Positions 278 to 45,449 are shown, counted from the stretch's first letter. The stretch is DNA of 64,000 bases from Candidatus Adlerbacteria bacterium (GCA_028286685.1 JAQBRA010000005.1:16726-80725), one strand, 5' to 3'. The notes: generated by a model not told the origin, from the sequence alone. A program made the numbers and translations.

Positions 278-1849
278 CTAAACTTCTTCCAAGGACGGGA
301 TGATCTTTACTGTAGCAGAGGCGCTCTTCTGCTGGCCGCTGAGGTCCGTACAGGTAAGCGTATAGGTATTCTCGTGGGCCGCTACCCGGGCCGGTGCCGG
401 AGAAGGGTTTGCAGTCCCTGTCCCTATAGTATTCTGGCCTGCGTCGCGCACAGAGCAGGTATCCGGAGTTATATTGGATGCGGACCAAGTAATGGTGGTG
501 TTGGTCCCTGAGCGGACGCGCACGCTCGGCTGGCCGTTAACTTTTATATCGAGCACTGCCGCGAGCATGCACGAGCTTCCTACCAGCTGATACCCGTCGC
601 TGCATCCGCAGTTTCCAGAAGCGTCGCGGGAGCTGTTCTCAGGCGCTGCAGTCTGGGCGCCGGGAATGTTGAGGCAGAAGTCAAACAGTATGCACGAGGT
701 CCCTGCCAAGTTATAGCCCGGGTTGCAGGCGCAGGTGCCGCCCTGCTCGCTTGCGTTAGGCGGGCAGCTAATGGTGCAGATGCCGCCTTGCAGCTGATAG
801 AACGCGTTGCATACGCAGGAATTACCTTCCGCATGCGCATTCGCCTTGCAGTTAAGGCTCGCGCTCACCGTCAGCGATTTGCTGTAATTATTCCATCCGG
901 GATAGTTGGTAGTCTGTACCGCCGGATAAAAAACATACTGGCCGGGAGCTGTCGGAGTGAAGGCATACGTCTTGTCAGTCGGAGGCACCCAAGTGACCCC
1001 CGGCAAGAGATTGTTTTGGATGTCGTTAATCGCCGTCTTTTCCAGCGCGTCTCCCGTAGCCGCGTCAAACGTAGCAGCAATAGTTACCGGCTCGCCCACA
1101 TCCACGCTCACCGTACCGCTTGAGCCATTGCCGGTAATGGCGACTTCGGGCGGATCTGTAAGGATGCGGACCGAAACGGAAGTCTTCCAGCTGCCCTGGC
1201 CCTTGCACTCGAGCGTATAGGTCGAAACGGTACCTGGGCCTCCTGGCGGATTTACCGATGCGGAGCCCACGAGATTTGATCCGCTATATACGACCGCTCC
1301 TCCCGGCCCGGTCACCGTGGAGCTGTTTGCGTATGAATTTGTCGCAGAGCCGGCGTATTTCGTGCATTTCTGTGAGCCGTCGATGTAGTTGATGGTACGG
1401 TACGGCTGGCAGGCATAGTCGAGCGTAGCGGTGCCGCCGGGAGCAACGCCCGTGGTCATGCCCGAGGAAGATACCGCTCCGCTATTCTGCACGCGGCTGG
1501 CGGCAGTCTGATTGTTTGCGCCGCGCGCGCTTAGGGCGCCCATATAAGGATTGGCGCAGAATGCGCTTTGCCAGCAAAAGTGCGCCCCGCAGCCGTATTT
1601 CGGATCATTCTGCGCGTAGACGGTATCGTCGTTAAGCGGATTGGGATATCCCCCGTCGTACGTCGGCCAATACGCAACCGCAGCGGCGTTACTGGTCGCG
1701 GAATTGTTGACCACGGCTATGCCGCCCTTGATGCCCGAAACCAGGTTAAAGCCGGAGGACAGGAATACCGCCGCTACCACCAAAAGCCCGGCTGCGGCGC
1801 ACATCCCCATGACGGTTAAATGATGGTCTTCGTTGTGGTTCATATACAA
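278..1849 (-). CDS. Large secreted/cell-surface protein A: N-terminal TM/signal anchor, conserved Cys/His-rich N-terminal module, Ig-like domains, EGF-like Cys repeats. Paralog of 27445..30042.
   Basis: 523-aa ORF with a hydrophobic N-terminus. The ~130-aa block AVAYWPTYDGGYPNPLND..YGCGAHFCWQS..TLDYACQPY..NYIDGSQKC is nearly identical to the block in the 865-aa ORF at 27445..30042. Repeated CxCNxGYxLxGxxC motifs; C-terminus ends ..IPSLEEV. Confidence 0.6.
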   Translation of the reverse strand: MYMNHNEDHHLTVMGMCAAAGLLVVAAVFLSSGFNLVSGIKGGIAVVNNSATSNAAAVAYWPTYDGGYPNPLNDDTVYAQNDPKYGCGAHFCWQSAFCANPYMGALSARGANNQTAASRVQNSGAVSSSGMTTGVAPGGTATLDYACQPYRTINYIDGSQKCTKYAGSATNSYANSSTVTGPGGAVVYSGSNLVGSASVNPPGGPGTVSTYTLECKGQGSWKTSVSVRILTDPPEVAITGNGSSGTVSVDVGEPVTIAATFDAATGDALEKTAINDIQNNLLPGVTWVPPTDKTYAFTPTAPGQYVFYPAVQTTNYPGWNNYSKSLTVSASLNCKANAHAEGNSCVCNAFYQLQGGICTISCPPNASEQGGTCACNPGYNLAGTSCILFDFCLNIPGAQTAAPENSSRDASGNCGCSDGYQLVGSSCMLAAVLDIKVNGQPSVRVRSGTNTTITWSASNITPDTCSVRDAGQNTIGTGTANPSPAPARVAAHENTYTLTCTDLSGQQKSASATVKIIPSLEEV

Positions 1850-10877: not shown

Positions 10878-12836
10878 CTACTTGGGGCTCACTACCCCGT
10901 CCTTGCCATCGGCGGTTTGGGTCGTCGGGCCCTGGGTCTGCGCCTGCACCTGGATCTGGGCAAAGCGGTCGGTGCCGGAGAGCGCTGCCGAGCCGGTCAA
11001 CGCCGGAGTCTGCCCCACTTGGCTTATCGACGGATTAAGCTCTACTTGGAAGGACGCTTCCTTGGCCGCAAGGGTGTAGCCGGTGCCAGCCTTAAGCTCG
11101 CCCAAGTCCCACCGCACCGTGCGGCTCGCAGCGTCGTAGACAACGCCTGCCTGCCCTGTTTTGTAAGTCACGTATGAAGGGAGCACTGCGGAAACGGTAG
11201 CGCCCGCTATGGCGTTGGAGGAATTTTTCGCCGTCCAGGCGACAGTGTAAGTAGTTGGAGACTCGGCGCGCGGCGGTATTGGACCCGTGTTGCTGTAGAC
11301 GCCCTGGCTAAAGTAAGACCGGGCTTCCAAAGAAAGCAGCGAGCCCAGCACAACCTCGGTCGTGTCGGCCGCCGACACAGTCTCTGATGACTGGTCCGAT
11401 CCGCGGGTGCCTTTGACGCCGAGCGTTAGGGTTACCTTGGGGTTGGTGTATATCGTGCCTCCGCTGCCGGGCGGCAAGGTAGCAAAGGAGAAATTGAGCG
11501 TGCCGGAATCGCCGGGTGCTACCTGGGCCAACGAAGGGTCCTGCGCGCTGGTCCAGGTAATGGTGTTGTCGGACGATTGGTAAAAGCCATTGGGGCTCTG
11601 TACTGATCCCGAATCGAGCACGGGGCCCGCAAGCTTGAGCGTTACCTCGATATTGGAAACCGGGTCGGTCAGGTTGTTCTTCCATGCGACGGAGCCGGAA
11701 ATATTCTGGCCCGGGTTGACCGAGATCGTGCTGCCCGTCTTGCCGTCGACCGTGAGCTCGCCGGATATAAACGGGCGGCTGACCGTAATACTGGTGGGCA
11801 CGGTCAGGAACGGCACCTTGATACGGGCAGCGGTTTGGTCCGCTTCTGAGCCAGCCAAGAAGCGGAATACGCGCTCGTCCCCGTCTTGGCCGTCGATGAC
11901 GCCCTTAACGCGCACGACGGCGGAGGCACCCGGCCGCAAGGAGCCGAGCCGCCACATAGTGGAACCCGAGTCTGCCTTGGGCGTAGCGCTCTGCACCGTA
12001 AAGCCGAACGGGTATTGCGCCTCAAGCGCAACATCGTCTACCGTTTCTGATGAATTGCTCTTGAGCGTTACCTCAAGCTCGAAGGGCTGGCCGGCGGTTA
12101 TGGTCTGGGGCGCCGCGACCGACACCGACACGGGCGAGGAGCCGAGCATGAAGGATACGTTGCCCTCGCGCACGAAGACGGCGTTAGAGCCATCTATCGA
12201 GTACTCGAGTGCCACCTTTACGTCCTGCGAGGAGCCTTCCTGGCCGTAAAAGACGGCGGACGCGGTGCGCTTGATGCTCTGCCCCGGCGCTATGGTGCCC
12301 AAGGACTGCCGCTCGGTCTGGAGCGGTTTTGTAAGATCTTTGGGGTCGCGGGTGCCCTGGGGATAGGTCAGTACCAAGTCGGCCAACGTAAGGGCTGCCG
12401 AATTGCGGTTGGTAATAATGACTTGGAGCTCTGCTTGGGAGCCCCCGTCGACTAGCGACGGCGCGATTATTTCCAGGTCGATATTGCCGCCGGAGACGAA
12501 ATTGCCGCCGCCAAAAAAGTAATAAGCGGCAGCGCCAGCAGCGATAAGGAAAAATACTAGGGACCCAAAAAAGAATTTAGTCGCAAAGGAGAATCCTTTC
12601 TTCTGCGCCCTGGGCGCGTCCATGCTGCCCCCAGTAAAACCCACACCCTCATCGGGCCTTGCCGGAGGCGCAGGCGGCGCCTCCCAGGCCACGGCCGCAT
12701 GCGCATCACTCTCGCTTAAGGGCGAGCGCACATCGGTTATAGGGCCCTGATGCTTGCGGGAGTAGAGCCGGTCCTTCAGCCCGTCTACGCCGGACTTGTC
12801 TTGGGACATCCCGTAATTATACCCTGATGCGGGCAC
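10878..12836 (-). CDS. Large membrane-anchored surface protein (cytoplasmic N-terminus, single TM, beta-rich extracellular repeats), hypothetical
   Basis: 652 aa; TM segment FFFGSLVFFLIAAGAAAYYFF after an ~80-aa N-terminal region, then a Ser/Thr/Gly/Val-rich beta-strand-like sequence. Inserted between recO and glyQS. Confidence 0.5.
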   Translation of the reverse strand: MPASGYNYGMSQDKSGVDGLKDRLYSRKHQGPITDVRSPLSESDAHAAVAWEAPPAPPARPDEGVGFTGGSMDAPRAQKKGFSFATKFFFGSLVFFLIAAGAAAYYFFGGGNFVSGGNIDLEIIAPSLVDGGSQAELQVIITNRNSAALTLADLVLTYPQGTRDPKDLTKPLQTERQSLGTIAPGQSIKRTASAVFYGQEGSSQDVKVALEYSIDGSNAVFVREGNVSFMLGSSPVSVSVAAPQTITAGQPFELEVTLKSNSSETVDDVALEAQYPFGFTVQSATPKADSGSTMWRLGSLRPGASAVVRVKGVIDGQDGDERVFRFLAGSEADQTAARIKVPFLTVPTSITVSRPFISGELTVDGKTGSTISVNPGQNISGSVAWKNNLTDPVSNIEVTLKLAGPVLDSGSVQSPNGFYQSSDNTITWTSAQDPSLAQVAPGDSGTLNFSFATLPPGSGGTIYTNPKVTLTLGVKGTRGSDQSSETVSAADTTEVVLGSLLSLEARSYFSQGVYSNTGPIPPRAESPTTYTVAWTAKNSSNAIAGATVSAVLPSYVTYKTGQAGVVYDAASRTVRWDLGELKAGTGYTLAAKEASFQVELNPSISQVGQTPALTGSAALSGTDRFAQIQVQAQTQGPTTQTADGKDGVVSPK

Positions 12837-12842
12837 GGCGCA

Positions 12843-13421
12843 TTAAAGCCCGGTTGCAGAAAGTGATTCGTTAATAGTGCGCACCAGCAGCGCGCGGTCG
12901 CGCAGCGCCTGGGCGGACAGCTCGACCGAGTACTCCCCTTCTATAAATTGCGAAAGCGCCTGCATATGCGGCAGGTAGCCCAAGTGCGCAATGATGCGCA
13001 AGACGACGACCGACTCTATAGCGTCGGCTGCAGCCTCTTCCGGGGCACGGGCAAGCGCGGCAAAGCCTTCCATTACCGTGCGATACACCGCAGGCACCGG
13101 CTCCTCGCCGTGTATGAGCCGCAGCAATAGCTTGGAAATTTTACCGGCGCGCTGGCGCAAGCGCGGCGTAGCCGAAACAAATTCGCGCGAAGCGGACTCT
13201 ACTCCGGTCAATTTCCACTCGTATTTGCCGCGCACCATGGAGTAGCGCGCATGGGTCAGACTCTCAAGCCCGTAGCGCAGCTTTGATTTTTCAAACCGGG
13301 CCGAGCGGGCCGATACGCGCACGAGTCCCAGCTCCTCCGTCAGCAGCGAGACCAGCGTATTAGCTTCCCCTACCCCGCGCTTCCCGAGTACCAAACCTTC
13401 GGTTACGTGTATCTTATGCAT
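12843..13421 (-). CDS. recO: DNA repair protein RecO (short form)
   Basis: 192 aa; N-terminal OB-fold pattern HKIHVTEGLVLGKRGVGEANTLVSLLTEELGLVRVSARSARF; conserved recO-glyQS neighbourhood. Confidence 0.65.
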   Translation of the reverse strand: MHKIHVTEGLVLGKRGVGEANTLVSLLTEELGLVRVSARSARFEKSKLRYGLESLTHARYSMVRGKYEWKLTGVESASREFVSATPRLRQRAGKISKLLLRLIHGEEPVPAVYRTVMEGFAALARAPEEAAADAIESVVVLRIIAHLGYLPHMQALSQFIEGEYSVELSAQALRDRALLVRTINESLSATGL

Positions 13422-16400
13422 CGGTTCGGGTAATGGTAAGCGCGGAGAGTCCCGTCTCTTCCATCAGCTGTTTTTTATTGTTGTTTGCCGCAGCCTCCTC
13501 CGCTTCTGAAACTGAAAGCTCGTAGCTGGGGCGGTCGGATATGACCAGGTTCTGCGACTTGCGCCACTCCTGTATGCGGCGCACCATATCGCGTACCAGG
13601 CCCTCCTCGACCAATTCCGGCGTAAGGGCAAACTCAAGCGATATAAGAGCGTCCCCCAGCTCCGAATTGACGCGGACTTCCTTGACGTTTACCTCCTCCA
13701 TAAGCACGGCTTGCAGCTCATCGGGCAGATCTTCAGTAATATCAATCGCGCTTAAAGGCTGGCGCAGCTTTACGCCCTCTGCCTCGCGAGCCTGCAGCGC
13801 GCGGGAGGCAAATTTGCGCACCAACTCCATATCCTTAACAAGGAGTGTGTCTGCCGCCTGCGTCTCGGGCCACTCGGACAAATGCACGCTCTGCGCGCTT
13901 TCCTCTTCCCGCACGCGGCGATACAGGTCGTCGGCAAAGAACGGCATGACGGGCGCCATAACCTTGGCTGTCGTTATAAGTACGTGCCGCAAGGTAGCGA
14001 GCGCTTCCTGTTTCTCTATCCCTTCTTCCTTAAAGCGGTCGCGCGAGCGGCGCAGGTACCACGTGGAAAGGTCGTCGATAAAAGCTCCGAGTGGGCGCGT
14101 CGCATCATCAAGCTGGTACGTCTCGAACCCTTCCGTCGATTCCTGTATCAGCTGCGAGAGGCGCGATAGTATCCAGCGGTCCAGCACGTGCGCGCTATCA
14201 GCCGAAGGCGCGGCAGCGCCGGCATACAGCTCGTAAAAGCTGCGCACGTTATCAAGCCGCATCAGGAGCTTCTTCTGCACCTCCTCTACCCCGCGTTCAT
14301 TAAAGCGCAGATCCTCGCCGCGGATGACTGGGGAGGAAAGCATGTAGTAGCGCAATGAGTCGGCGCCGTACTTCTCGACGACTTCCATGGGGTCCGGATA
14401 GTTCCTGAGCTTCTTGCTCATCTTTTGCCCGTCGGAGGCAAGCACCATACCGTTAACGATGACATTCTGATAGGGAGCCTTATTAAAGAGCGCCGTGCCC
14501 AAAACGATAAGCGAGTAGAACCACCCGCGAGTCTGGTCGAGCCCCTCGGCGATAAACTGGGCAGGATAGCCCTTCGTGCCGAAGCCCAAGAGGCCCTTAG
14601 GGTTGAATGTGTCTTTTTTAAACGGGTAGTGGTTGGAAGCAAACGGCATCGAGCCCGACTCGAACCAGCAGTCAAACACGTCCGGGATGCGCTTCCACTC
14701 GCCGGCCATGCTGTTGCCCATCGGGACCTCGTCTATATATGGGCGATGCAAGTCGAGCTCATAGTCCTCGTTGTGCGGAAACGGTACGAACGACAATTCG
14801 CGCACTTCGCCTGTGCGGAACATGGCATCAGACATAAACTCACCTCGTGGCGCGCGGGCAGCCACTTGCTGGAGAGTCCAGATAGGATCTCCATGCGAGA
14901 CAAACAATATATTCTTGCCTGCGTAGCGCCGCTCTACCTCAAATATAAATTCTCCTACACGTGCACGGACGGTTTCGTCGGATGAGCCCGCTTCTCGCAA
15001 ACGCTCATCGGTCATGAGAGCCGAGTCGGGCAAACCAAGTTCTTTAAGCACTATCTTTGCGGTCTCGTGCGTGCGCAGAAACGGCGAGGCAATTATCATA
15101 TCAATCTTCTCCTTACCAAGCTCGGCCGCGGCATGCATGGCCTGATTTTTCCCCTTATCAGTAAGGCGATTTTCCGGATCTCCGCTCAAATCCTCCATAT
15201 TACGCACATTGCTTTGAGCTTCGCCGTGGCGCATGACAAAGTAGCGGTTGCCTGACCGGCGCACCATGCCCAAGAGATCGCTTATCGAACCGGCCACCTT
15301 AACCTCTTTAGTTTTCGTATTACGCCATACCGGCAGCGGCGCGCCCCAGTAGCGCGAACGCGATATCGCCCAGTCGGGCGCGCTTTCAATGCCGTTCTTG
15401 AACCGGCCCTTCCCTATATGCTCGGGCACCCAGCTTACCTTTTCGTTTTCGCTTGCGAGCTTGCCCTTAACTTTACTGACCGCGACAAACCATGAGGTGG
15501 CGGCCCAGTTGAGGAGCGGCGTGTCGCAGCGCCAGCAATGCGGATAGGAATGCTTGACCGTCTCCTGCTTAAACAGGAGTCCGTGCTCGCCCAGAAGCGC
15601 CGCGACTTTCTCATCGGTTTCGCGCGGATTGCCCTTGGGCTTTACATAGAGGCCAGCAAAGTCCGTAACCATGGCATTAAATTTGCCCTCATCGGTTACG
15701 TGGTGGATGAGCGGGATTTTTTCCTTCTGCGCCAGCTCTAGGTCCTCAGCGCCGAAGGCGGGAGCGATGTGCACGATACCGGTGCCGTTGTCGAGCGTAA
15801 CGTAGGCGGCGGCGTACACCTTCCACGCATGGGTCTTGTGCTTATGGAGCTCCTCGGCAAAATAATCAAACGGCGGCAGGTATTTCTTGCCCACCAGATC
15901 CTTTCCCTTCATCTCCCCCGCCACTTCCACATCGCCCAATACTGCCTGCGCGCGCTCCTTGGCGACTACCAAAAATTCATCTCCGACTTTTGCCTTAACG
16001 TACGTAGCATCCGCATTAACCGCAGCTGCGGCATTGCCCGGCAAGGTCCACGGCGTCGTGGTCCAGACCAAAAGCGAAGTGCCCGGCTCGTCGATGAGCG
16101 GCAGCTTTACGTATACGGAAATATCGTCGATATCCTTGTAACCCTGCGCCACTTCGAAGTTGGAAAGCGTCGTACCGCAGTGCGGGCAGTAGTGGAGCGA
16201 TTTGAAGCCCTCGTAAATGAGCCCGCGGTCAAAGAGGTTCTTAAATGACCACCACACCGATTCGGTATAGCTGGTGTCCATGGTTTTGTAGTCATGGTCC
16301 ATGTCGGCCCAGCGGCCAAGCCTGGGGATGATGCGCTTCCAGTCGGCAACATCCTTCATGATGCTCACTCGGGCGGCCTTGTTGAACTTCTCTATGCCGT

Positions 16401-16764
16401 AGGCCTCGATGTCGCGCTTGTTCTTGAGGCCCAGCTCGCGCTCGACCAAATTTTCCACAGGCAAGCCGTGGCAGTCCCAGCCCCAGCGGCGCGGCACGCG
16501 ATAGCCCCGCATGGTGCGGTAGCGCGGGATGGCGTCCTTAATAGTTGAGGCTAGAATGTGCCCGTAGTGCGGCAAGCCGTTGGCAAATGGCGGCCCATCA
16601 TAAAAGGTAAAGTCGCCTTTAGGTGCTTGCTTCTCGAGCGATTTTTGAAATATCCCCTCGCGGTTCCAAAAGGCCAGAACCTCTTCCTCGCGAGCAGCGA
16701 GCAGGCTCTTGGGCTTTTCGGCCTTGTGGTGCAGCTCTTCGCCTCCCTGCTTGGGGTCGTCCAT
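13414..16764 (-). CDS. ileS: Isoleucyl-tRNA synthetase (type 2 / eukaryote-like) with an inserted histidine-phosphatase domain
   Basis: 1116 aa; HIGH = PHYGH, KMSKS = KMSKK, editing domain, DCWFESGSMPF. A ~165-aa RHG..SHG insertion lies between PLPVW and HRPYIDE. Confidence 0.9.
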   Translation of the reverse strand: MDDPKQGGEELHHKAEKPKSLLAAREEEVLAFWNREGIFQKSLEKQAPKGDFTFYDGPPFANGLPHYGHILASTIKDAIPRYRTMRGYRVPRRWGWDCHGLPVENLVERELGLKNKRDIEAYGIEKFNKAARVSIMKDVADWKRIIPRLGRWADMDHDYKTMDTSYTESVWWSFKNLFDRGLIYEGFKSLHYCPHCGTTLSNFEVAQGYKDIDDISVYVKLPLIDEPGTSLLVWTTTPWTLPGNAAAAVNADATYVKAKVGDEFLVVAKERAQAVLGDVEVAGEMKGKDLVGKKYLPPFDYFAEELHKHKTHAWKVYAAAYVTLDNGTGIVHIAPAFGAEDLELAQKEKIPLIHHVTDEGKFNAMVTDFAGLYVKPKGNPRETDEKVAALLGEHGLLFKQETVKHSYPHCWRCDTPLLNWAATSWFVAVSKVKGKLASENEKVSWVPEHIGKGRFKNGIESAPDWAISRSRYWGAPLPVWRNTKTKEVKVAGSISDLLGMVRRSGNRYFVMRHGEAQSNVRNMEDLSGDPENRLTDKGKNQAMHAAAELGKEKIDMIIASPFLRTHETAKIVLKELGLPDSALMTDERLREAGSSDETVRARVGEFIFEVERRYAGKNILFVSHGDPIWTLQQVAARAPRGEFMSDAMFRTGEVRELSFVPFPHNEDYELDLHRPYIDEVPMGNSMAGEWKRIPDVFDCWFESGSMPFASNHYPFKKDTFNPKGLLGFGTKGYPAQFIAEGLDQTRGWFYSLIVLGTALFNKAPYQNVIVNGMVLASDGQKMSKKLRNYPDPMEVVEKYGADSLRYYMLSSPVIRGEDLRFNERGVEEVQKKLLMRLDNVRSFYELYAGAAAPSADSAHVLDRWILSRLSQLIQESTEGFETYQLDDATRPLGAFIDDLSTWYLRRSRDRFKEEGIEKQEALATLRHVLITTAKVMAPVMPFFADDLYRRVREEESAQSVHLSEWPETQAADTLLVKDMELVRKFASRALQAREAEGVKLRQPLSAIDITEDLPDELQAVLMEEVNVKEVRVNSELGDALISLEFALTPELVEEGLVRDMVRRIQEWRKSQNLVISDRPSYELSVSEAEEAAANNNKKQLMEETGLSALTITRTDA
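14770..15252 (-). other. Histidine phosphatase (PGAM/SixA-like, branch 1) domain nested inside ileS
   Basis: Residues ~503-668 of IleRS: RYFVMRHGEAQSN .. IIASPFLRTHETA .. ILFVSHGDPIW. RHG nucleophile, RxxxT and a second His are all present; it replaces the Cys-rich zinc knuckle found at this position in other IleRS. Confidence 0.7.
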
Positions 16765-27444: not shown

Positions 27445-30042
27445 TTAAATCTCTTCAAAGCCCGGTATGAGCGTTACCGTCGTCTGCGCGGTCGCGGTGC
27501 TGGTGCCGTTGGTGCACGAGATCCGGTAGGTACTGGCGGCACTGACCGTAACCGGAGTTTGAATGCCGGAGGAGTTGAGACTGGAAGAAATAACGGCATT
27601 GGTCTGGTCTCGGACCGTGCACGAGGTCATATTAGTGCTCCCCCACAGCAGATAGCTGGTGCCGCCCTTGCGCACGCGTGCCGGGTTGGCGGAGAAAGGC
27701 GGCGACAGCGTCGGTGCACCAACCGAAGGAGCGAGCGTATTGCTATTGAATGAGCCGCCGCTCGTGGGCGTGCAGGTAAGGTAGATCGAGTGGGAGCCTC
27801 CGGAGAGAGCTCCGGCATCGTAACTTCCCGGGTAATTAGCAGCGAGTCCGGTCGCGACCTGGACACTATCTATATAGAGACGGCAGGAATTCGCGGTGAT
27901 ATTTTGGGACGTCCAAGTAAGGTACGCATGATCGCCTGCAGTCTGCGGAGCCGCGCCTGCCAAGGCCAAAGATACAGACGGCTGGACGGCGACAACCGCG
28001 ACTGAAGCATAGTTGTTATAGGCTGTGATGCTGTTAGTTTTTGCCGCACCGTAAAAGGTGTAGGTGCCGGCAGCGCTTGGCGTAAAGGCGTACGTCTTCG
28101 TGGTATTAGGCTGCGTCCAGCAGCTGACATTGTACGGAGTTACATCAGCACACGGAACGCTGGTGACCTGGTCTGAGCCATTGATGGCCGTTGCCGCGAG
28201 CGTATCACCCGAGCCGGCTGCAAAGGTAGCGGTTATGGGAGTCGCAGCTCCTACGGTTACCGTTTTGGTAACGCCGTTCCCTGCCCCGGCATTAATGGTA
28301 ACGGTCGGAATGGAACCAACTACTACCGAAGTCGTGGTTGAAACCTCCCCGCCCATGAGGTCCTGGCAGATTATGGAAAAATTCTGGATGCCGGACTGCG
28401 ACAGTGCGCCGCTGGAAACTGAGCCGGATGTTTGCCCTACAGAAAAGGTCACTTGACCATGGGTGCCAGTAGCACTGCCGGCGCCAGTGGTGGTGGTGCA
28501 AGCAGAAGCACTTCCGCAATAGCCGGTGCCGCCGTATGCAGCATATGAAATACCATCTCCTGTTATGCCGCCTATATACCCGCCGCCGCCGCCGCCAGCG
28601 CCAGTATCAGCACCCTGGTACGGCGAAGCTCCTCCTATATTGCCAGTCGTACCTCCTCCGTCGTTGCCAGCAATTGGAGGGGTTCCTCCTCCGCCCGCCA
28701 AATGCCCGCCATCCGCAGCATAGGCAACCTTAGGCCATAAAGAAAGGATGGATGCTACTCCGTTACCCAGATTTGCAAAAACATCCTCGTGCGGCCCAAA
28801 ACCATAATTAGGACATAAAGAGCCAGTGCCCCCAGCACCTCCACCCGCTGTCAAAAGCTCCGTGCCCCCGGCGTTGCGTATGGCCGATCGTCCGCCGCCA
28901 GAACCGTAGGTAGGGAAATCTGGATATTGACCGTGACCGCCGCCGCCGTACGTTCGAGGACCATTCTTGGTGCCAGCCTGGCCGACAATAACGGTGAGTA
29001 CCTGGCCTGGTGAGACTGCAAGAGTGCCACTAGTATATCCTCCTCTGCCGCCCGGACCTTCACCACCATTGCAGCCAGTGCCTCCCCCTGCTCCCCATGC
29101 CTTAACTAACACAGAAGTAACTCCGGCTGGCACAGTGTAAGTCTGGTCACCTCCCGTATAGGAAAAAGTATTTTGTTGCCCATTGGTCTGCAGCGTCGTC
29201 CCCGCTTGGTTGACGATGCGGCAAGAAGCGGGCACGACCTGGCTGGCGGACCAGGAGAGCGCAGTCGAGCTCCCGACCGGCACTATCGCAGGACTTGCCG
29301 AGAGGCCAAGGACTGCGGTCGATATCTTGACCGGCGTGGTAACTGAGCGCACCGTAGCGGCCCCCGACTTGCAGGTAAGCGTATAGTTTTGTGTAGAGCC
29401 TATGGCGCCAGTAACGCTCGTGGTGGCAGAACCGACAAGGGTCGTACCGCTGTAAATCGTATTACCGCTCGGACCAGTCAGAGTTACATTGTTGGCAAAA
29501 TACTCGGTCTGCGCGCCGACATAGCGGGTGCACGGCTGCGAGCCGTCGATGTAGTTGCGAGTGAGGTACGGCTGGCAGGCATAATCGAGCGTTACCACGT
29601 TGCCGGACCCGACATAGACGTTTGTGCCTGAGCTAGAAACTGCACCGCCTTTCTGTACGATACTGGCGCTGTTTTGGAGCGTGGACTTGGCGCTCAGGGC
29701 GCCTACGTACGGATCAATGCAGATAGTGCTCTGCCAGCAGTAATGCGCCCCGCAGCCGTAGCTTGCGCCCGAATCCTGCGCATAGACCGTGTAGTCGTTG
29801 AGCGGGTTGGGGTACCCGCCGTCGTAGGTCGTAAAGTAGGCTACCGCTGCGGTGTTGGCAGTTTGAGCCGTGCCATTGATATTTTGTATGGCGAGCCTGA
29901 GCGATTCCGGCAGCGGGAGGTACCCCGAGAACGCCAAAGCCGCAGCCACCAAAAGGAAGGCTGCGGCGCTAGCAGGGACCAATACTGCAAGTCCCCCATT
30001 TTTAAGTTTTTCTATCAATCCGCGCAGGCTCATGGTACCCAA
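27445..30042 (-). CDS. Large secreted/cell-surface protein B: same N-terminal Cys/His module as protein A, Ig-like domains and a polyglycine (ALK/LTK Gly-rich-like) domain
   Basis: 865 aa; AVAYFTTYDGGYPNPLND..YGCGAHYCWQS..TLDYACQPY..NYIDGSQPC; Gly-rich region TYTVPAGVTSVLVKAWGAGGGTGCNGGEGPGGRGGY..VSPGQVLTVIVGQAG; C-terminus ..LIPGFEEI. Confidence 0.6.
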   Translation of the reverse strand: MGTMSLRGLIEKLKNGGLAVLVPASAAAFLLVAAALAFSGYLPLPESLRLAIQNINGTAQTANTAAVAYFTTYDGGYPNPLNDYTVYAQDSGASYGCGAHYCWQSTICIDPYVGALSAKSTLQNSASIVQKGGAVSSSGTNVYVGSGNVVTLDYACQPYLTRNYIDGSQPCTRYVGAQTEYFANNVTLTGPSGNTIYSGTTLVGSATTSVTGAIGSTQNYTLTCKSGAATVRSVTTPVKISTAVLGLSASPAIVPVGSSTALSWSASQVVPASCRIVNQAGTTLQTNGQQNTFSYTGGDQTYTVPAGVTSVLVKAWGAGGGTGCNGGEGPGGRGGYTSGTLAVSPGQVLTVIVGQAGTKNGPRTYGGGGHGQYPDFPTYGSGGGRSAIRNAGGTELLTAGGGAGGTGSLCPNYGFGPHEDVFANLGNGVASILSLWPKVAYAADGGHLAGGGGTPPIAGNDGGGTTGNIGGASPYQGADTGAGGGGGGYIGGITGDGISYAAYGGTGYCGSASACTTTTGAGSATGTHGQVTFSVGQTSGSVSSGALSQSGIQNFSIICQDLMGGEVSTTTSVVVGSIPTVTINAGAGNGVTKTVTVGAATPITATFAAGSGDTLAATAINGSDQVTSVPCADVTPYNVSCWTQPNTTKTYAFTPSAAGTYTFYGAAKTNSITAYNNYASVAVVAVQPSVSLALAGAAPQTAGDHAYLTWTSQNITANSCRLYIDSVQVATGLAANYPGSYDAGALSGGSHSIYLTCTPTSGGSFNSNTLAPSVGAPTLSPPFSANPARVRKGGTSYLLWGSTNMTSCTVRDQTNAVISSSLNSSGIQTPVTVSAASTYRISCTNGTSTATAQTTVTLIPGFEEI

Positions 30043-30090: not shown

Positions 30091-30897
30091 TTAGCGGATC
30101 TCGTAGGTAACGGAGACGTTGCTCGTAACCTTGTTCTGCCCTACCGAGATGTCCGGAGCGGACTTAGCATCCATGGCCTGGCTCATAACCTCGGCACCGC
30201 GGCCGTACGCCATCGGCACCGGATAGCCCGAGCCGCTCTCGCTGAAGGACACGACGCGGACAATGGAGACGCCGAGCTGGCGGGCCAATTCATCGGCCTT
30301 GGCCTTGGCGTCAGCGATAGCCTTCTGCCTTGCCTCATCCTGAACCTGGTTCGGATCGTCAAAAGTAAAGTTGAGGCCGGAAACCTCGGTAGCGCCCGCA
30401 GACCCTACCCCGCCCAAGAGCTCCCCTGCCTTTTCAGTATCGCGAACCTTAACGGTAGTTGTCTGGCGCACCTGGTAGCCGCGCAAGACCTGCTCGCCGC
30501 CGGGGCAGTAACCCTGGGCGCATGCCTTCTGTACGTAGTCGTACATCGGGGACACGGAGTAATCGCTGGTCTGGATATCTTTCTCCTCGATGCCCGCAGA
30601 CTTTAGGTACTCGGTCGTGGCATTGGCCTTAGCAGTCGCATCGGCCTGAGCTGCGGCCACGGTCGGCTTCTCCGACATGACGCTAAAGCTGAAGGTCGCA
30701 ATATCGGGAACCGCCACAGCCTCGCCGTAGCCGGATACGTTGATAGTGTTGCCCGCAGCAATGCCAGCGCCGATATAGCGCAGGCCCATGAGCCCGGCAA
30801 CTACCTGAATGCCCAAAAACACGACCAGGAGTATAACGCCCGCCACGATAAACTTGCGCAACCGCTCCCCTGCCGAACCCTCGAATAAAGCGTTCAT
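30091..30897 (-). CDS. SIMPL (DUF541) domain periplasmic/surface protein with N-terminal TM anchor
   Basis: 268 aa; ..VSGYGEAVAVPDIATFSFSV..GQNKVTSNVSVTYEI typical of the SIMPL / 26-kDa periplasmic immunogenic protein family. Confidence 0.7.
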   Translation of the reverse strand: MNALFEGSAGERLRKFIVAGVILLVVFLGIQVVAGLMGLRYIGAGIAAGNTINVSGYGEAVAVPDIATFSFSVMSEKPTVAAAQADATAKANATTEYLKSAGIEEKDIQTSDYSVSPMYDYVQKACAQGYCPGGEQVLRGYQVRQTTTVKVRDTEKAGELLGGVGSAGATEVSGLNFTFDDPNQVQDEARQKAIADAKAKADELARQLGVSIVRVVSFSESGSGYPVPMAYGRGAEVMSQAMDAKSAPDISVGQNKVTSNVSVTYEIR

Positions 30898-30983
30898 ATT
30901 GATATGAAATGCTAATTAATAAGTAGCTTCTCAACTACTGACGCGCAGGCACAGCTTGGATTACCGGAGCGGCGCTCTTGGGG

Positions 30984-31703
30984 CTATTTCTTATTCTTAA
31001 TAGCCTCTATGACCGACATGAACTGCTGGTACGGCAAGGCGCCCGAGATCGGCACTGCCGCGCCGTTGCCATAGACGACCGTGTACGGCGTACCTTGGGC
31101 TCCGGCGACCTGCGCGTCGGCGGATTCCTGGTTTATTTTGGCGTCGTACTTGTTAGAGGACACGCACGACATGTATTTTGCCGTGTCCGCCCCGAGCTGG
31201 CCGGCAAGCGCCAAATAGCGCGCGGGGCCCATATTCTCCTGGTCGGTAAACATCGACTCGGTAAACTTCCACCAGCCGTCATTACCAAGCTGTTCGGTAA
31301 TGCACTCGGCGGCCTGCGCTGCGGGGCGCGCCTCCGGATGGATGCTTTCAAGCGGCAAGTGGCGCATGACCCAGGCTATCTGGCCCTGGCTCTCGTCTAC
31401 GATGCGCTTGATGGTCGGGTACGCCTGCATGCAGTAGTAGCACTGGAAGTCCGAGTACTCGATAAGCACGATAGGCGCCGTCGGAGAGCCGATGATGTGG
31501 TCGTCGGCCGTGGGGGCAGGCACCTGGGTAGAGGCGGGCAGTATGGAATTGGTGTCAGATGCGCTTGAGGTGCCCTGGTTGGTAAAAATAATGGCGCCCG
31601 CTATGAGCACTCCGGCAATAAGGATGGACAGCGACGGGGAAAACTCCAGCTTTTTCAAATCAATCATGACCCTATCGTACCACCTCCTCTTTAGCCTTGT
31701 CAT
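30984..31703 (-). CDS. DsbA-family thiol:disulfide oxidoreductase (thioredoxin fold), membrane-anchored
   Basis: 239 aa, N-terminal TM helix, active site SDFQCYYCMQAY (CxxC). Confidence 0.65.
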   Translation of the reverse strand: MTRLKRRWYDRVMIDLKKLEFSPSLSILIAGVLIAGAIIFTNQGTSSASDTNSILPASTQVPAPTADDHIIGSPTAPIVLIEYSDFQCYYCMQAYPTIKRIVDESQGQIAWVMRHLPLESIHPEARPAAQAAECITEQLGNDGWWKFTESMFTDQENMGPARYLALAGQLGADTAKYMSCVSSNKYDAKINQESADAQVAGAQGTPYTVVYGNGAAVPISGALPYQQFMSVIEAIKNKK

Positions 31704-43469: not shown

Positions 43470-45449
43470 TTATTGCTGCGGGACAGGATTTTCGGTTGCC
43501 GGAGCCTCGGCTGCAGGCACCCCTGTTTCTTCTTCGGCAGGAGCAGTTGTCTCATCCGCAGGAGCCTCCGTGTCCGCTGCGGGCTCCTCCGGCGCAGCCG
43601 GTACGTCAGCTTCTGCAGGAGCAGCGGGCAGTTCGGCAGCAGGAGTTTCCGCCGGCACATCTTCAGGTGCATTACCTGCATTATCCTCGACTACTGGCTC
43701 TTGTGGAGCCGGAGCAGAGAAAGACCGGAGAGAAGCTGCGGCCGGAGCCGGGGCGGGCGTTACGTAGTACGTAATAGTCTTAGTGTCGTAGCTGTTCTGG
43801 CCCGATACGGTCAGTACCAGCTCTCCTTCCGCGTAATCGTCAGGAATTACGAAGCTTGAGTTATTGAAGGAGCCGGTGCTGTCGGCGGTAAAGGTTGCGA
43901 CGATCGCCGAACCCGAGCGGTCGGTGGTCACCGCAATCGTGTCGCCGCCCACATAGCCATGGCCAACGAAGGTCACTGCGGTGCCCGGGGCTCCCGCATA
44001 GGAGGCCAGCTGCAGATCGGTATAGACCGGCGCAACGGTCATGGTGGCGGTGCCCGGAGCACCCGAGGTCTCGCCGGTCGCCACAATCTGGGCGGGACCG
44101 GACGGCGCGTACGGCACGCGTGCGGCAATAGTTACGTCGCCCATAGAATCTGCGGTGCCGGAGCCGAGCTCTTGGCTGCCGCTCTTGGCGACCACTTCCT
44201 CGCCCGGCAAGTAGTTATGGCCCGTAATAGTGAGCGGCATGCCGCCCTTTTCGTACCACGTCGAGAGATTGATCCATGAGTAGTACGCGCCTATCGCCAT
44301 ATCGAAGCTTGGGTTAGAGCCGCTCTTTTCTCCCGTAGCGCTGATAGTTGCCAGGCTGTTGGGAGTCGTAGGGACTTTGACCATAAGGCCCGAGAAGCTG
44401 CCTAGAGCATTGGTGTGGGCCGTGCCTACCTCGTCGCCCTCCACCTCAACAACCACATCCTCGTCAGGCGCAAAGCCCGATCCTGCAAGCGTAATCTGCA
44501 TACCCGGTGCCGAGTAGTACGAAGACGGATTAAGCGAAGAGTAGAAGTTGGCGCGGGTAATAGGCGCCTCGGCTGCTGCCTCTGAAAGATCACCGACGAC
44601 GCGGTACTCGGCCAAGCCGGTGCCGTACGGAATAGTTACCTGTGCCTGGCCCATGAACGAACCGGATGCGTCCGCTATGCCGTGCGCGACCGCCTCATCA
44701 TCATCGCCCAAGTAAACGGAAACCGGCTCATTAAGGCCGAAGCCGCCGCCCGTAAAGGTAACCATATTGCCTGGGAGTATGTACCAGGCAGACGGAGAGA
44801 CGTAGGGGTATAGGTCGGCGACTGAGAGCGACATACTCATCGAAGCGCCGGTGTTACCGCCCTTGATAACGTAGGCATTCGTGCCGCCATGCAGCGAGAA
44901 CGGTACCGTGCTTGCTCCCGCATTCGTAAACGCGCCATTAGCATCGGCCGCAAAAGACGCGATGGTTTCGCCGTCGCGCTTAACCGTAATAGGCTCGTTG
45001 GGCGCAAAGCCCGAGCCGCTCCATGAGAGCATCGAGCCCGGCGCCATGTACCAGGAGCTTGGCGACACTTGCGGGTACAGCGACTGTACGTAGAGATAGC
45101 TAAATGCCACCTGTCCGGACGTCTGCCCTATGCCGATGACGATATAGAGGCCCGACGGCACATTAGGAATAGTGAGCGCTGCGCCAGAAAACGCGCCCTG
45201 CGCGTTTGCGGTCGCGGTCGTGTTGGAGAGCCCGAGCAGTACCTGCACTTGCTCCCCTGCCGCAAAGCCCGAGCCTCCTACGGTTATCGGCGCATATGCC
45301 GTGTTGCCGCCCGAAACGGAAAGTGACGGAGCCGCCGCAAACGCAATTGATGCAAACGCGAACAAGCTCAGTACTGCGCCCATAAGCACCCCGCCTCGCA
45401 TGGTTGTTGTCATATATATTGTAATGCGCACCTGATAAATGAAGGGCAC
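43470..45449 (-). CDS. Secreted surface protein with ~6 tandem ~90-aa beta-domain repeats and a Pro/Ala/Glu-rich C-terminal tail
   Basis: 659 aa; signal/TM MGAVLSLFAFASIAFAAAP; repeats with a recurrent Y..PG....SGSGFAP.E.V pattern; tail ..APAPQEPVVEDNAGNAPEDVPAETPAAELPAAPAEADVPAAPEEP... Confidence 0.6.
   Translation of the reverse strand: MPFIYQVRITIYMTTTMRGGVLMGAVLSLFAFASIAFAAAPSLSVSGGNTAYAPITVGGSGFAAGEQVQVLLGLSNTTATANAQGAFSGAALTIPNVPSGLYIVIGIGQTSGQVAFSYLYVQSLYPQVSPSSWYMAPGSMLSWSGSGFAPNEPITVKRDGETIASFAADANGAFTNAGASTVPFSLHGGTNAYVIKGGNTGASMSMSLSVADLYPYVSPSAWYILPGNMVTFTGGGFGLNEPVSVYLGDDDEAVAHGIADASGSFMGQAQVTIPYGTGLAEYRVVGDLSEAAAEAPITRANFYSSLNPSSYYSAPGMQITLAGSGFAPDEDVVVEVEGDEVGTAHTNALGSFSGLMVKVPTTPNSLATISATGEKSGSNPSFDMAIGAYYSWINLSTWYEKGGMPLTITGHNYLPGEEVVAKSGSQELGSGTADSMGDVTIAARVPYAPSGPAQIVATGETSGAPGTATMTVAPVYTDLQLASYAGAPGTAVTFVGHGYVGGDTIAVTTDRSGSAIVATFTADSTGSFNNSSFVIPDDYAEGELVLTVSGQNSYDTKTITYYVTPAPAPAAASLRSFSAPAPQEPVVEDNAGNAPEDVPAETPAAELPAAPAEADVPAAPEEPAADTEAPADETTAPAEEETGVPAAEAPATENPVPQQ

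Follow-up and report, generated by a model that had tools for sequence, protein, structure and literature searches.

The window analysed here, a stretch of 64,000 nucleotides from a Candidatus Adlerbacteria bacterium, has a GC content of 56%, carries eight tRNA genes and encodes, among other products, DnaA/DnaN, many aminoacyl-tRNA synthetases, PilB, a class A PBP and a Mur ligase. In NCBI taxonomy, Candidatus Adlerbacteria belongs to the Parcubacteria group of Patescibacteria. For the IleRS of the window, identity is 78% to the enzyme of an uncultured MAG and 61–68% to its counterparts in several MAGs of Candidatus Adlerbacteria or Paceibacterota. Two minus-strand genes encode the proteins described below. 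Gene A (278..1849), an ORF of 523 aa when read from its first TTG, encodes a putative surface protein with an N-terminal anchor and a modular build, and is recorded at NCBI as JWL87_533 (P0001; 510 aa, 278..1810). Gene B (27445..30042), an ORF of 865 aa, likewise read from its first TTG and recorded as JWL87_558 (P0002; 862 aa, 27445..30033), is a paralogue of A that carries a glycine-rich insert. At these sizes, neither product is the giant protein that the initial annotation of the window described. Gene A adjoins efp, within an S6-SSB-S18 ... EF-P neighbourhood, and this EF-P-adjacent slot is syntenic in contigs L084 and L085, while gene B is flanked by an Lnt-like gene and a SIMPL/DUF541 gene.

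Protein A begins with a single hydrophobic segment (1748..1804, minus strand, as are all features of both genes) that would be a signal-anchor or an uncleaved signal peptide; its best 19-mer has a Kyte-Doolittle mean of 2.14, and the protein has no other TM-like window. The segment is followed by a module that we call the head, which consists of an N-subdomain with three Cys residues (1547..1684; AAVAYWPTYDGGYPNPLND..YGCGAHFCWQSAFC..), the part best conserved between A and B, and a β-part with three further Cys residues (1163..1546; ..TLDYACQPY..C..YTLECK..) that the AF2 model resolves into 12 strands. The remainder of the protein, the body, opens with a 'TA[IL]N[DG]' β-sandwich domain (857..1147) delimited by alignment and modelled at a pLDDT of about 90, which is the best-conserved body domain across the wider family. 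It continues with EGF-like Cys-rich hairpin repeats (539..850; C..CxC..GY.L.GG.C) and a terminal 2-Cys Ig-like domain recognised by alignment and in the model (302..526), and ends in the tail IIPSLEEV (281..301), with no TM segment after it. The EGF-like region gave only cEGF and EGF_3 matches far below the Pfam threshold and was modelled as β-hairpins at a pLDDT of about 70; a relative matched Pvs28 EGF at an E value of 1e-4. Protein A has no variable insert, and no Pfam domain matched it above threshold.

Protein B has the same overall plan. Three K/R residues precede its N-terminal hydrophobic anchor (29923..29991), and its head (aa 65–240; 29323..29850) is 59% identical to that of A. The glycine-rich insert (28387..29109) matches the Pfam ALK/LTK glycine-rich domain PF12810 over aa 312–552 above the gathering threshold (E value of 4.9e-7; 30.4 bits against a cutoff of 24.5) and also matches phrog_7388 (E value of 7e-8). 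It is followed by a 'TAING' β-sandwich domain (27985..28311), a B-type body whose nearest relatives are P0007 and L2_869, and by a terminal 2-Cys Ig-like domain with the tail LIPGFEEI, both defined by alignment (27448..27714). Two genes upstream of B and on the same strand lies a gene for a membrane-anchored DsbA-like thioredoxin with a CYYC motif (30984..31703), with the SIMPL/DUF541 gene (30091..30897) between the two and no convincing terminator between any of these three genes. The DsbA-like gene plausibly represents disulfide-forming machinery; a search for VKOR/DsbB beside it found none.

Comparison of A with B by BLASTP showed that both ORFs carry the shared N-terminal module after the membrane anchor, as the initial annotation had proposed (53% identity over 204 aa, A36–237 and B44–241, E value of 3e-58), and that their C-terminal parts are also homologous (29% identity, E value of 1e-14). 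The homology therefore stands, but the proposed dimensions of ~130 aa at ~70% identity need revision: a core of 108 columns (AAVAY..GSQxC) is 67% identical, and the full head of about 175 aa is 59% identical. Similarly, five of the six Cys residues attributed to that block lie within it, and the sixth lies outside at YTLxC; a single His accompanies them. The two heads are the only copies of the module in the window (tblastn). At the nucleotide level they are 59% identical overall and 43% identical at third positions, with a longest exact run of 19 nt, a saturated pS of 0.67 and a dN of 0.42; codons 66–80, within the N-subdomain, are 93% identical. The flanking genes differ on both sides. The saturation of synonymous sites and the difference in flanks indicate an old paralogy under purifying selection rather than a misassembly or recent duplication, and the purifying selection suggested earlier is borne out by a dN/dS of about 0.25, with dS saturated.

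The head is very rare. When 1.84 billion cluster representatives were searched exhaustively by HMMER with a profile built from the A and B heads, nine proteins were returned, which include A, B and one repeat-driven false positive; the module has about eight true relatives in that collection. Scans of the GTDB species representatives for the head, of JGI metagenomes with head and body motifs, and of IMG/VR gave no match, and 80 IleRS loci yielded no further copies when searched by tblastn with heads and bodies. A word-indexed protein search, whose index lacks most of the members, returned nothing for a two-sequence head profile and only P0006 for an eight-sequence profile. Contig context and searching with the conserved C-terminal part together added two paralogues on contig L002, P0010 (the tandem neighbour of P0004) and P0011 to P0014. 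The resulting family alignments are shallow, with 8–13 sequences. All source names recovered for the relatives are Patescibacteria, Paceibacterota or Candidatus Adlerbacteria, and the relatives that could be placed indicate a family restricted to the Parcubacteria/Paceibacteria lineage (CPR). Literature searches turned up no account of this family, only general remarks on surface proteins of the Ig-like or PKD type in parasitic Paceibacteria. In contigs L002 and L087 the family gene has a Y1 transposase gene immediately upstream.

The family members share the order anchor, linker of ~20 residues, head, variable insert, β-sandwich, EGF-like repeats, terminal Ig domain and tail. There is one N-terminal hydrophobic segment of 19–23 residues and no C-terminal one, and a conserved AxA-like site lies ~25 residues beyond the segment, just before the head. 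The number of EGF-like Cys hairpins ranges from zero to four. The inserts in relatives are BNR repeats, SPRY plus DUF7483 or, in P0012, Gly_rich_2 (PF21722); together with the ALK-type Gly-rich insert of B, these are typical of adhesins. P0012 is headless, with the anchor leading directly into Gly_rich_2, and P0013 has a different head in place of the module. Across the family, the terminal Ig domain and the tail are the parts most universally present.

The relationships among heads and among bodies do not agree. By head, A and B are mutual nearest relatives (59% identity, against at most 44% to any other head), whereas the body domain puts A with L2_613 (64%) and the V4474 pair (57%) and B with P0007 (70%) and L2_869 (62%), A and B being only 48% identical to each other. 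The V4474 pair, V4474_02745 and V4474_02740 in the MAG GCA_040384245.1, stands in tandem in the efp-adjacent slot that gene A occupies in the window. These two genes are 98.5% identical over their 3' 1049 nt and 91% identical over the first 107 nt, but the DNA of the intervening ~500 nt linker plus head cannot be aligned, and the encoded heads share 43–46% amino acid identity. The breakpoints in identity coincide with the module boundaries. The picture of a conserved head on divergent proteins consequently describes the genome studied here and is reversed in this related genome, where near-identical bodies carry divergent heads. The efp-adjacent slot is occupied by a headless member in L085 and L086, and a second shared slot, upstream of gap-rpiB-rpe-tkt, holds the B-type members P0005, P0007 and P0009. 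These discordant groupings and the V4474 pair indicate that heads and bodies reassort and that the head behaves as an exchangeable cassette. Between strain-level orthologues the heads are 90–92% identical and the bodies 91%; the head is thus evolving no faster than the body and gives no sign of diversifying selection. Variation of the head by a DGR was considered and rejected: the TR of L084 (14917–15052) pairs with a VR in a different ORF of 212 aa, no TR/VR pair with a nearby RT was found for the family genes, and neither RT nor Avd was present among the window ORFs scanned.

Structural models were examined for the head and for the full-length protein. The N-subdomain (~45 residues, GGYPNPL..YGCGAHFCWQSAFC) has a pLDDT below 50 in both AF2 models. 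The β-part (residues 89–216 in P0001 numbering) is all-β, modelled at a pLDDT of 70–92 overall and of 80–92 for its 12 strands, and both AF2 and Foldseek support the two-sheet β-sandwich, typically of about 7–9 strands, that characterises Ig-like/FnIII-like domains; the best Foldseek matches of the head are single Ig domains (TMt of 0.5–0.58). In hhalign, the last ~55 residues of the head pair with the latter half of the terminal Ig domain of the family (probability 75%, E value of 2.5e-5). The link is of moderate strength and suggests that the head, at least in part, probably arose as a divergent copy of this 2-Cys Ig repeat. The full-length AF2 model of A has a mean pLDDT of 71.8, and its best Foldseek matches are GhpA, SbsB, complement MG domains, Dscam and titin, all at low TM. 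A phage origin of the head was rejected, as PHROGs, Foldseek against BFVD and IMG/VR gave no specific match to the head.

Each head contains six or eight Cys residues, always an even number, with three in the β-part and three or five in the N-subdomain. Even counts are as expected for disulfides, and since the number is odd in both pieces, at least one cross-link would join the N-subdomain to the sandwich if all were oxidised. Judging from these counts, the N-subdomain and the β-sandwich are probably held together by one disulfide or more. The even Cys numbers, the N-terminal hydrophobic segment and the DsbA-like CYYC protein are the features anticipated for an extracytoplasmic, disulfide-bonded domain, and a disulfide-braced extracytoplasmic module with a binding or structural role is the economical reading of the head.

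At the other end of the protein, the tail follows the motif P-x-x-x-E-[IVF]-COOH, which is kept in nearly all full-length relatives; P0013 ends in ...QEQ. IIPSLEEV and LIPGFEEI are the sole endings of this kind among the window ORFs, and the presence of both these endings and Ig-like domains on A and B agrees with what was first reported. Neither a hydrophobic helix nor a basic tail follows the E-[IVF], where the protein stops, and NCBIfam, including its CTERM sorting models, gave no match to A or B even at E ≤ 1. A classical C-terminal sorting signal was rejected because there is no C-terminal hydrophobic window and no NCBIfam match, and the tail does not have the tripartite signal of sortase, exosortase or archaeosortase substrates.

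On balance, and with a little better than even confidence, we read A and B as N-terminally anchored, disulfide-stabilised, adhesin-like surface proteins in which the head is a non-catalytic cassette for recognition or docking and the rest is a stalk. The two proteins are ancient paralogues of a modular, putatively cell-surface family in Parcubacteria/Paceibacteria, each probably held in the membrane by its one N-terminal hydrophobic segment. The head would be extracytoplasmic and non-enzymatic, combining a short Cys-containing N-subdomain with a β-sandwich whose C-terminal half would derive from the family's own 2-Cys Ig repeat, and this cassette would recombine independently of the remaining protein. 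As a recognition or docking module it would be presented on a stalk formed by the β-sandwich, EGF-like and Ig parts; a ligand-binding role for the head is our best guess.

The name 'head' presumes a topology, and the module adjoins the membrane anchor. If the anchor is uncleaved, the head would be membrane-proximal, an odd place for the recognition of an external ligand. A less likely but serious alternative is that the module is a membrane-proximal pedestal, lying against the membrane or the cell wall, that attaches the protein to the cell's own envelope or to a membrane partner and leaves the terminal Ig domain and the tail as the distal, functional tip. Signal peptidase I does not ordinarily cleave ~25 residues past a hydrophobic segment, and the position of the AxA-like site argues to that extent against ordinary signal-peptidase cleavage. 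The co-variation of the A and B heads within one genome is also what a single self partner would predict, and the universality of the terminal Ig domain and tail would suit a distal tip. However, the V4474 heads, which differ from each other so widely on identical anchors and bodies, are hard to reconcile with a single self component, and headless members in the same chromosomal slot also speak against it.

It is quite unlikely that the head is a missed member of a characterised domain family, such as a carbohydrate-binding module or a Big/FnIII subtype. Profile searches against Pfam, NCBIfam, PHROGs and PDB were empty for the head, the curated Ig-like models of Pfam (Big_x, fn3, PKD and others) gave no match in the head at E ≤ 1, and every Foldseek match in PDB and BFVD was a generic sandwich of the Ig/FnIII-like kind that failed to reach E ≤ 1e-3, with TM scores of 0.2–0.34. 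The initial statement that the module could be assigned to no known family is upheld by these searches.

The suggestion of an enzymatic Cys/His domain, in which GCGAHxCW would be the catalytic centre of a peptidase or hydrolase that targets the host or the envelope of the cell itself, fares worse and is very unlikely. Its appeal lies in the Cys and His that are invariant between A and B, in a stretch that is the best conserved of the pair, and in the low pLDDT of the N-subdomain, whose 45 best-conserved residues could possibly harbour a small specialised site. Yet the His that was called invariant is present in A and B only and is replaced in six of the eight heads (GCGMAYCN, GCPGGPCG, GDGYQRCN and others), and two of the eight lack the motif's first Cys. 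The columns conserved in at least seven of the eight heads comprise ten G, five A, three each of Y, P and C, and one each of L, Q and S; none of them is a His, Asp, Glu, Lys or Arg column. The even Cys numbers also count against a catalytic role. Papain-like, NlpC/P60 and CHAP hydrolases have a conserved catalytic Cys and His; the pair is not conserved across the heads, whose modelled part is all-β rather than α+β, and no enzyme family matched by sequence or fold. Finally, a recent duplication or assembly error behind the A/B similarity can be virtually dismissed, as no point was found in its favour and, beyond the divergence and the differing neighbours described above, both proteins occur independently in public records and A is also found on a Logan contig from SRR13312974.

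CPR/Patescibacteria are believed to spend their lives attached to other microbes, and to our knowledge almost nothing is known of the proteins that mediate contact in the large Parcubacteria branch. The family described here provides a contact candidate open to sequence searches, recognisable by its exchangeable module, its conserved stalk, the two chromosomal slots in which it recurs and its distinctive C-terminus. Should the head determine specificity, variants of it could serve to predict or test host range; otherwise, a tempting annotation as a new Cys/His enzyme is removed and a new domain family is defined for databases. A bolder interpretation, which we regard as unlikely, is that recombination reassorts heads for host or partner recognition, amounting to adhesin switching at the efp and gap slots, and that the TM-less tail is an undescribed, lineage-specific attachment or sorting signal. 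As it stands, the family presents an undescribed domain and C-terminal motif on a familiar protein type, with a notable cassette-like inheritance and no new mechanism demonstrated.

Comparison with known systems places A and B closest to tandem Ig-like/FnIII surface proteins and adhesins, including GhpA (9fls/9flv), SbsB (4aq1), Bap BSP (7c7u) and Rib domains, which are likewise extended chains of β-sandwiches, extracytoplasmic and with modular variable inserts. Foldseek ranks such beads-on-a-string adhesion or S-layer proteins first both for the full-length A model (E values of 2e-6 to 1e-4, TM of 0.13–0.21) and for the head. In contrast to them, A and B are anchored by an N-terminal hydrophobic segment rather than by LPXTG, SLH or an outer-membrane anchor, their head adds an N-subdomain of 3–5 Cys residues with no structural match, and no family membership could be shown for the head or the tail. 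The likeness to the ALK/LTK glycine-rich domain PF12810 in B and to Gly_rich_2 PF21722 in P0012 concerns the insert and not the head. No counterpart is known for the P-x-x-x-E-[IVF] C-terminus; as a short motif at the extreme C-terminus after an Ig-like domain it resembles the LPXTG/sortase, PEP-CTERM/exosortase, PGF-CTERM/archaeosortase and T9SS CTD signals, a resemblance only, given that the tail has no hydrophobic helix or basic tail and no NCBIfam match. With respect to mosaic or cassette-type variable adhesins, in which recombination or gene conversion shuffles domains among paralogues, none of the A/B-family genes is linked to a silent-cassette array, an invertase, a repeat-flanked switch or a DGR, and the head is not hypervariable between strains; what the family shares with those adhesins is sharp breakpoints at domain boundaries and discordant head and body trees.

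Directly upstream of gene B, one of the two paralogous surface-protein genes with the common head module, lie a SIMPL/DUF541 gene and a gene for a membrane-anchored DsbA-like thioredoxin with a CYYC motif (30091..31703, minus strand). Both neighbours are on the same strand as gene B; the gaps between the genes are short and contain no convincing terminator, and co-transcription of the two with gene B is possible. A search of the vicinity for a VKOR/DsbB partner of the DsbA-like thioredoxin found none. In two contigs of related genomes, L002 and L087, the B-type member occupies the conserved slot ahead of gap-rpiB-rpe-tkt and is immediately preceded by a Y1 (IS200-like) transposase gene (L002, 2761..3477; L087, 2435..3109). 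Upstream of the transposase is a partial but very large gene for a surface protein (783 to 1887 aa). The large surface-protein gene is also present in L088 and L089, without a called transposase.

The window encodes two further large proteins, probably of the cell surface, on the minus strand: an ORF of 652 aa that contains a DUF11 repeat (10878..12836) and one of 659 aa with only a weak TIG match in Pfam (43470..45449); both lack the head and the tail of the family. Tails similar to the family tail (..KPSVIEN and ..KFLFIEF) occur in P0017 and P0016, two unrelated proteins with tandem 2-Cys Ig repeats that come from other metagenomes, so that a P/x-x-V/F-x-E-x C-terminus may be more widespread among Ig-repeat proteins of this type.

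Elsewhere in the window, an IleRS-type class I tRNA synthetase of 1116 aa (13414..16764, minus strand) carries an inserted histidine-phosphatase domain (His_Phos_1, PF00300; around aa 509–592, E = 8e-23). Full-length tblastn matches to this synthetase in dozens of Paceibacteria MAGs suggest that the insertion is lineage-wide.

The tandem family genes of L084 are followed, ~2.3 kb downstream, by a complete-looking diversity-generating retroelement with bAvd, reverse transcriptase and TR/VR (L084, 13971..16431; GCA_040384245.1, JAWVHA010003683.1). Its 137-nt TR/VR pair has 85% identity (19 mismatches), and the VR lies 3'-terminally in an ORF of 212 aa outside the family of genes A and B. In L085 (12301..13594), the efp-adjacent headless member has as neighbours a Peptidase_S74 gene, for an intramolecular chaperone of the phage tail-spike type, and a gene for another Gly_rich_2 protein, which hints that phage-tail-fibre-like modules circulate in these loci. 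The glycine-rich insert of gene B (28387..29109, minus strand) scores above the Pfam threshold for PF12810, the metazoan-named ALK/LTK glycine-rich domain, and also matches the phage family phrog_7388, which has no known function; the equivalent position in relatives is occupied by Gly_rich_2 (PF21722).
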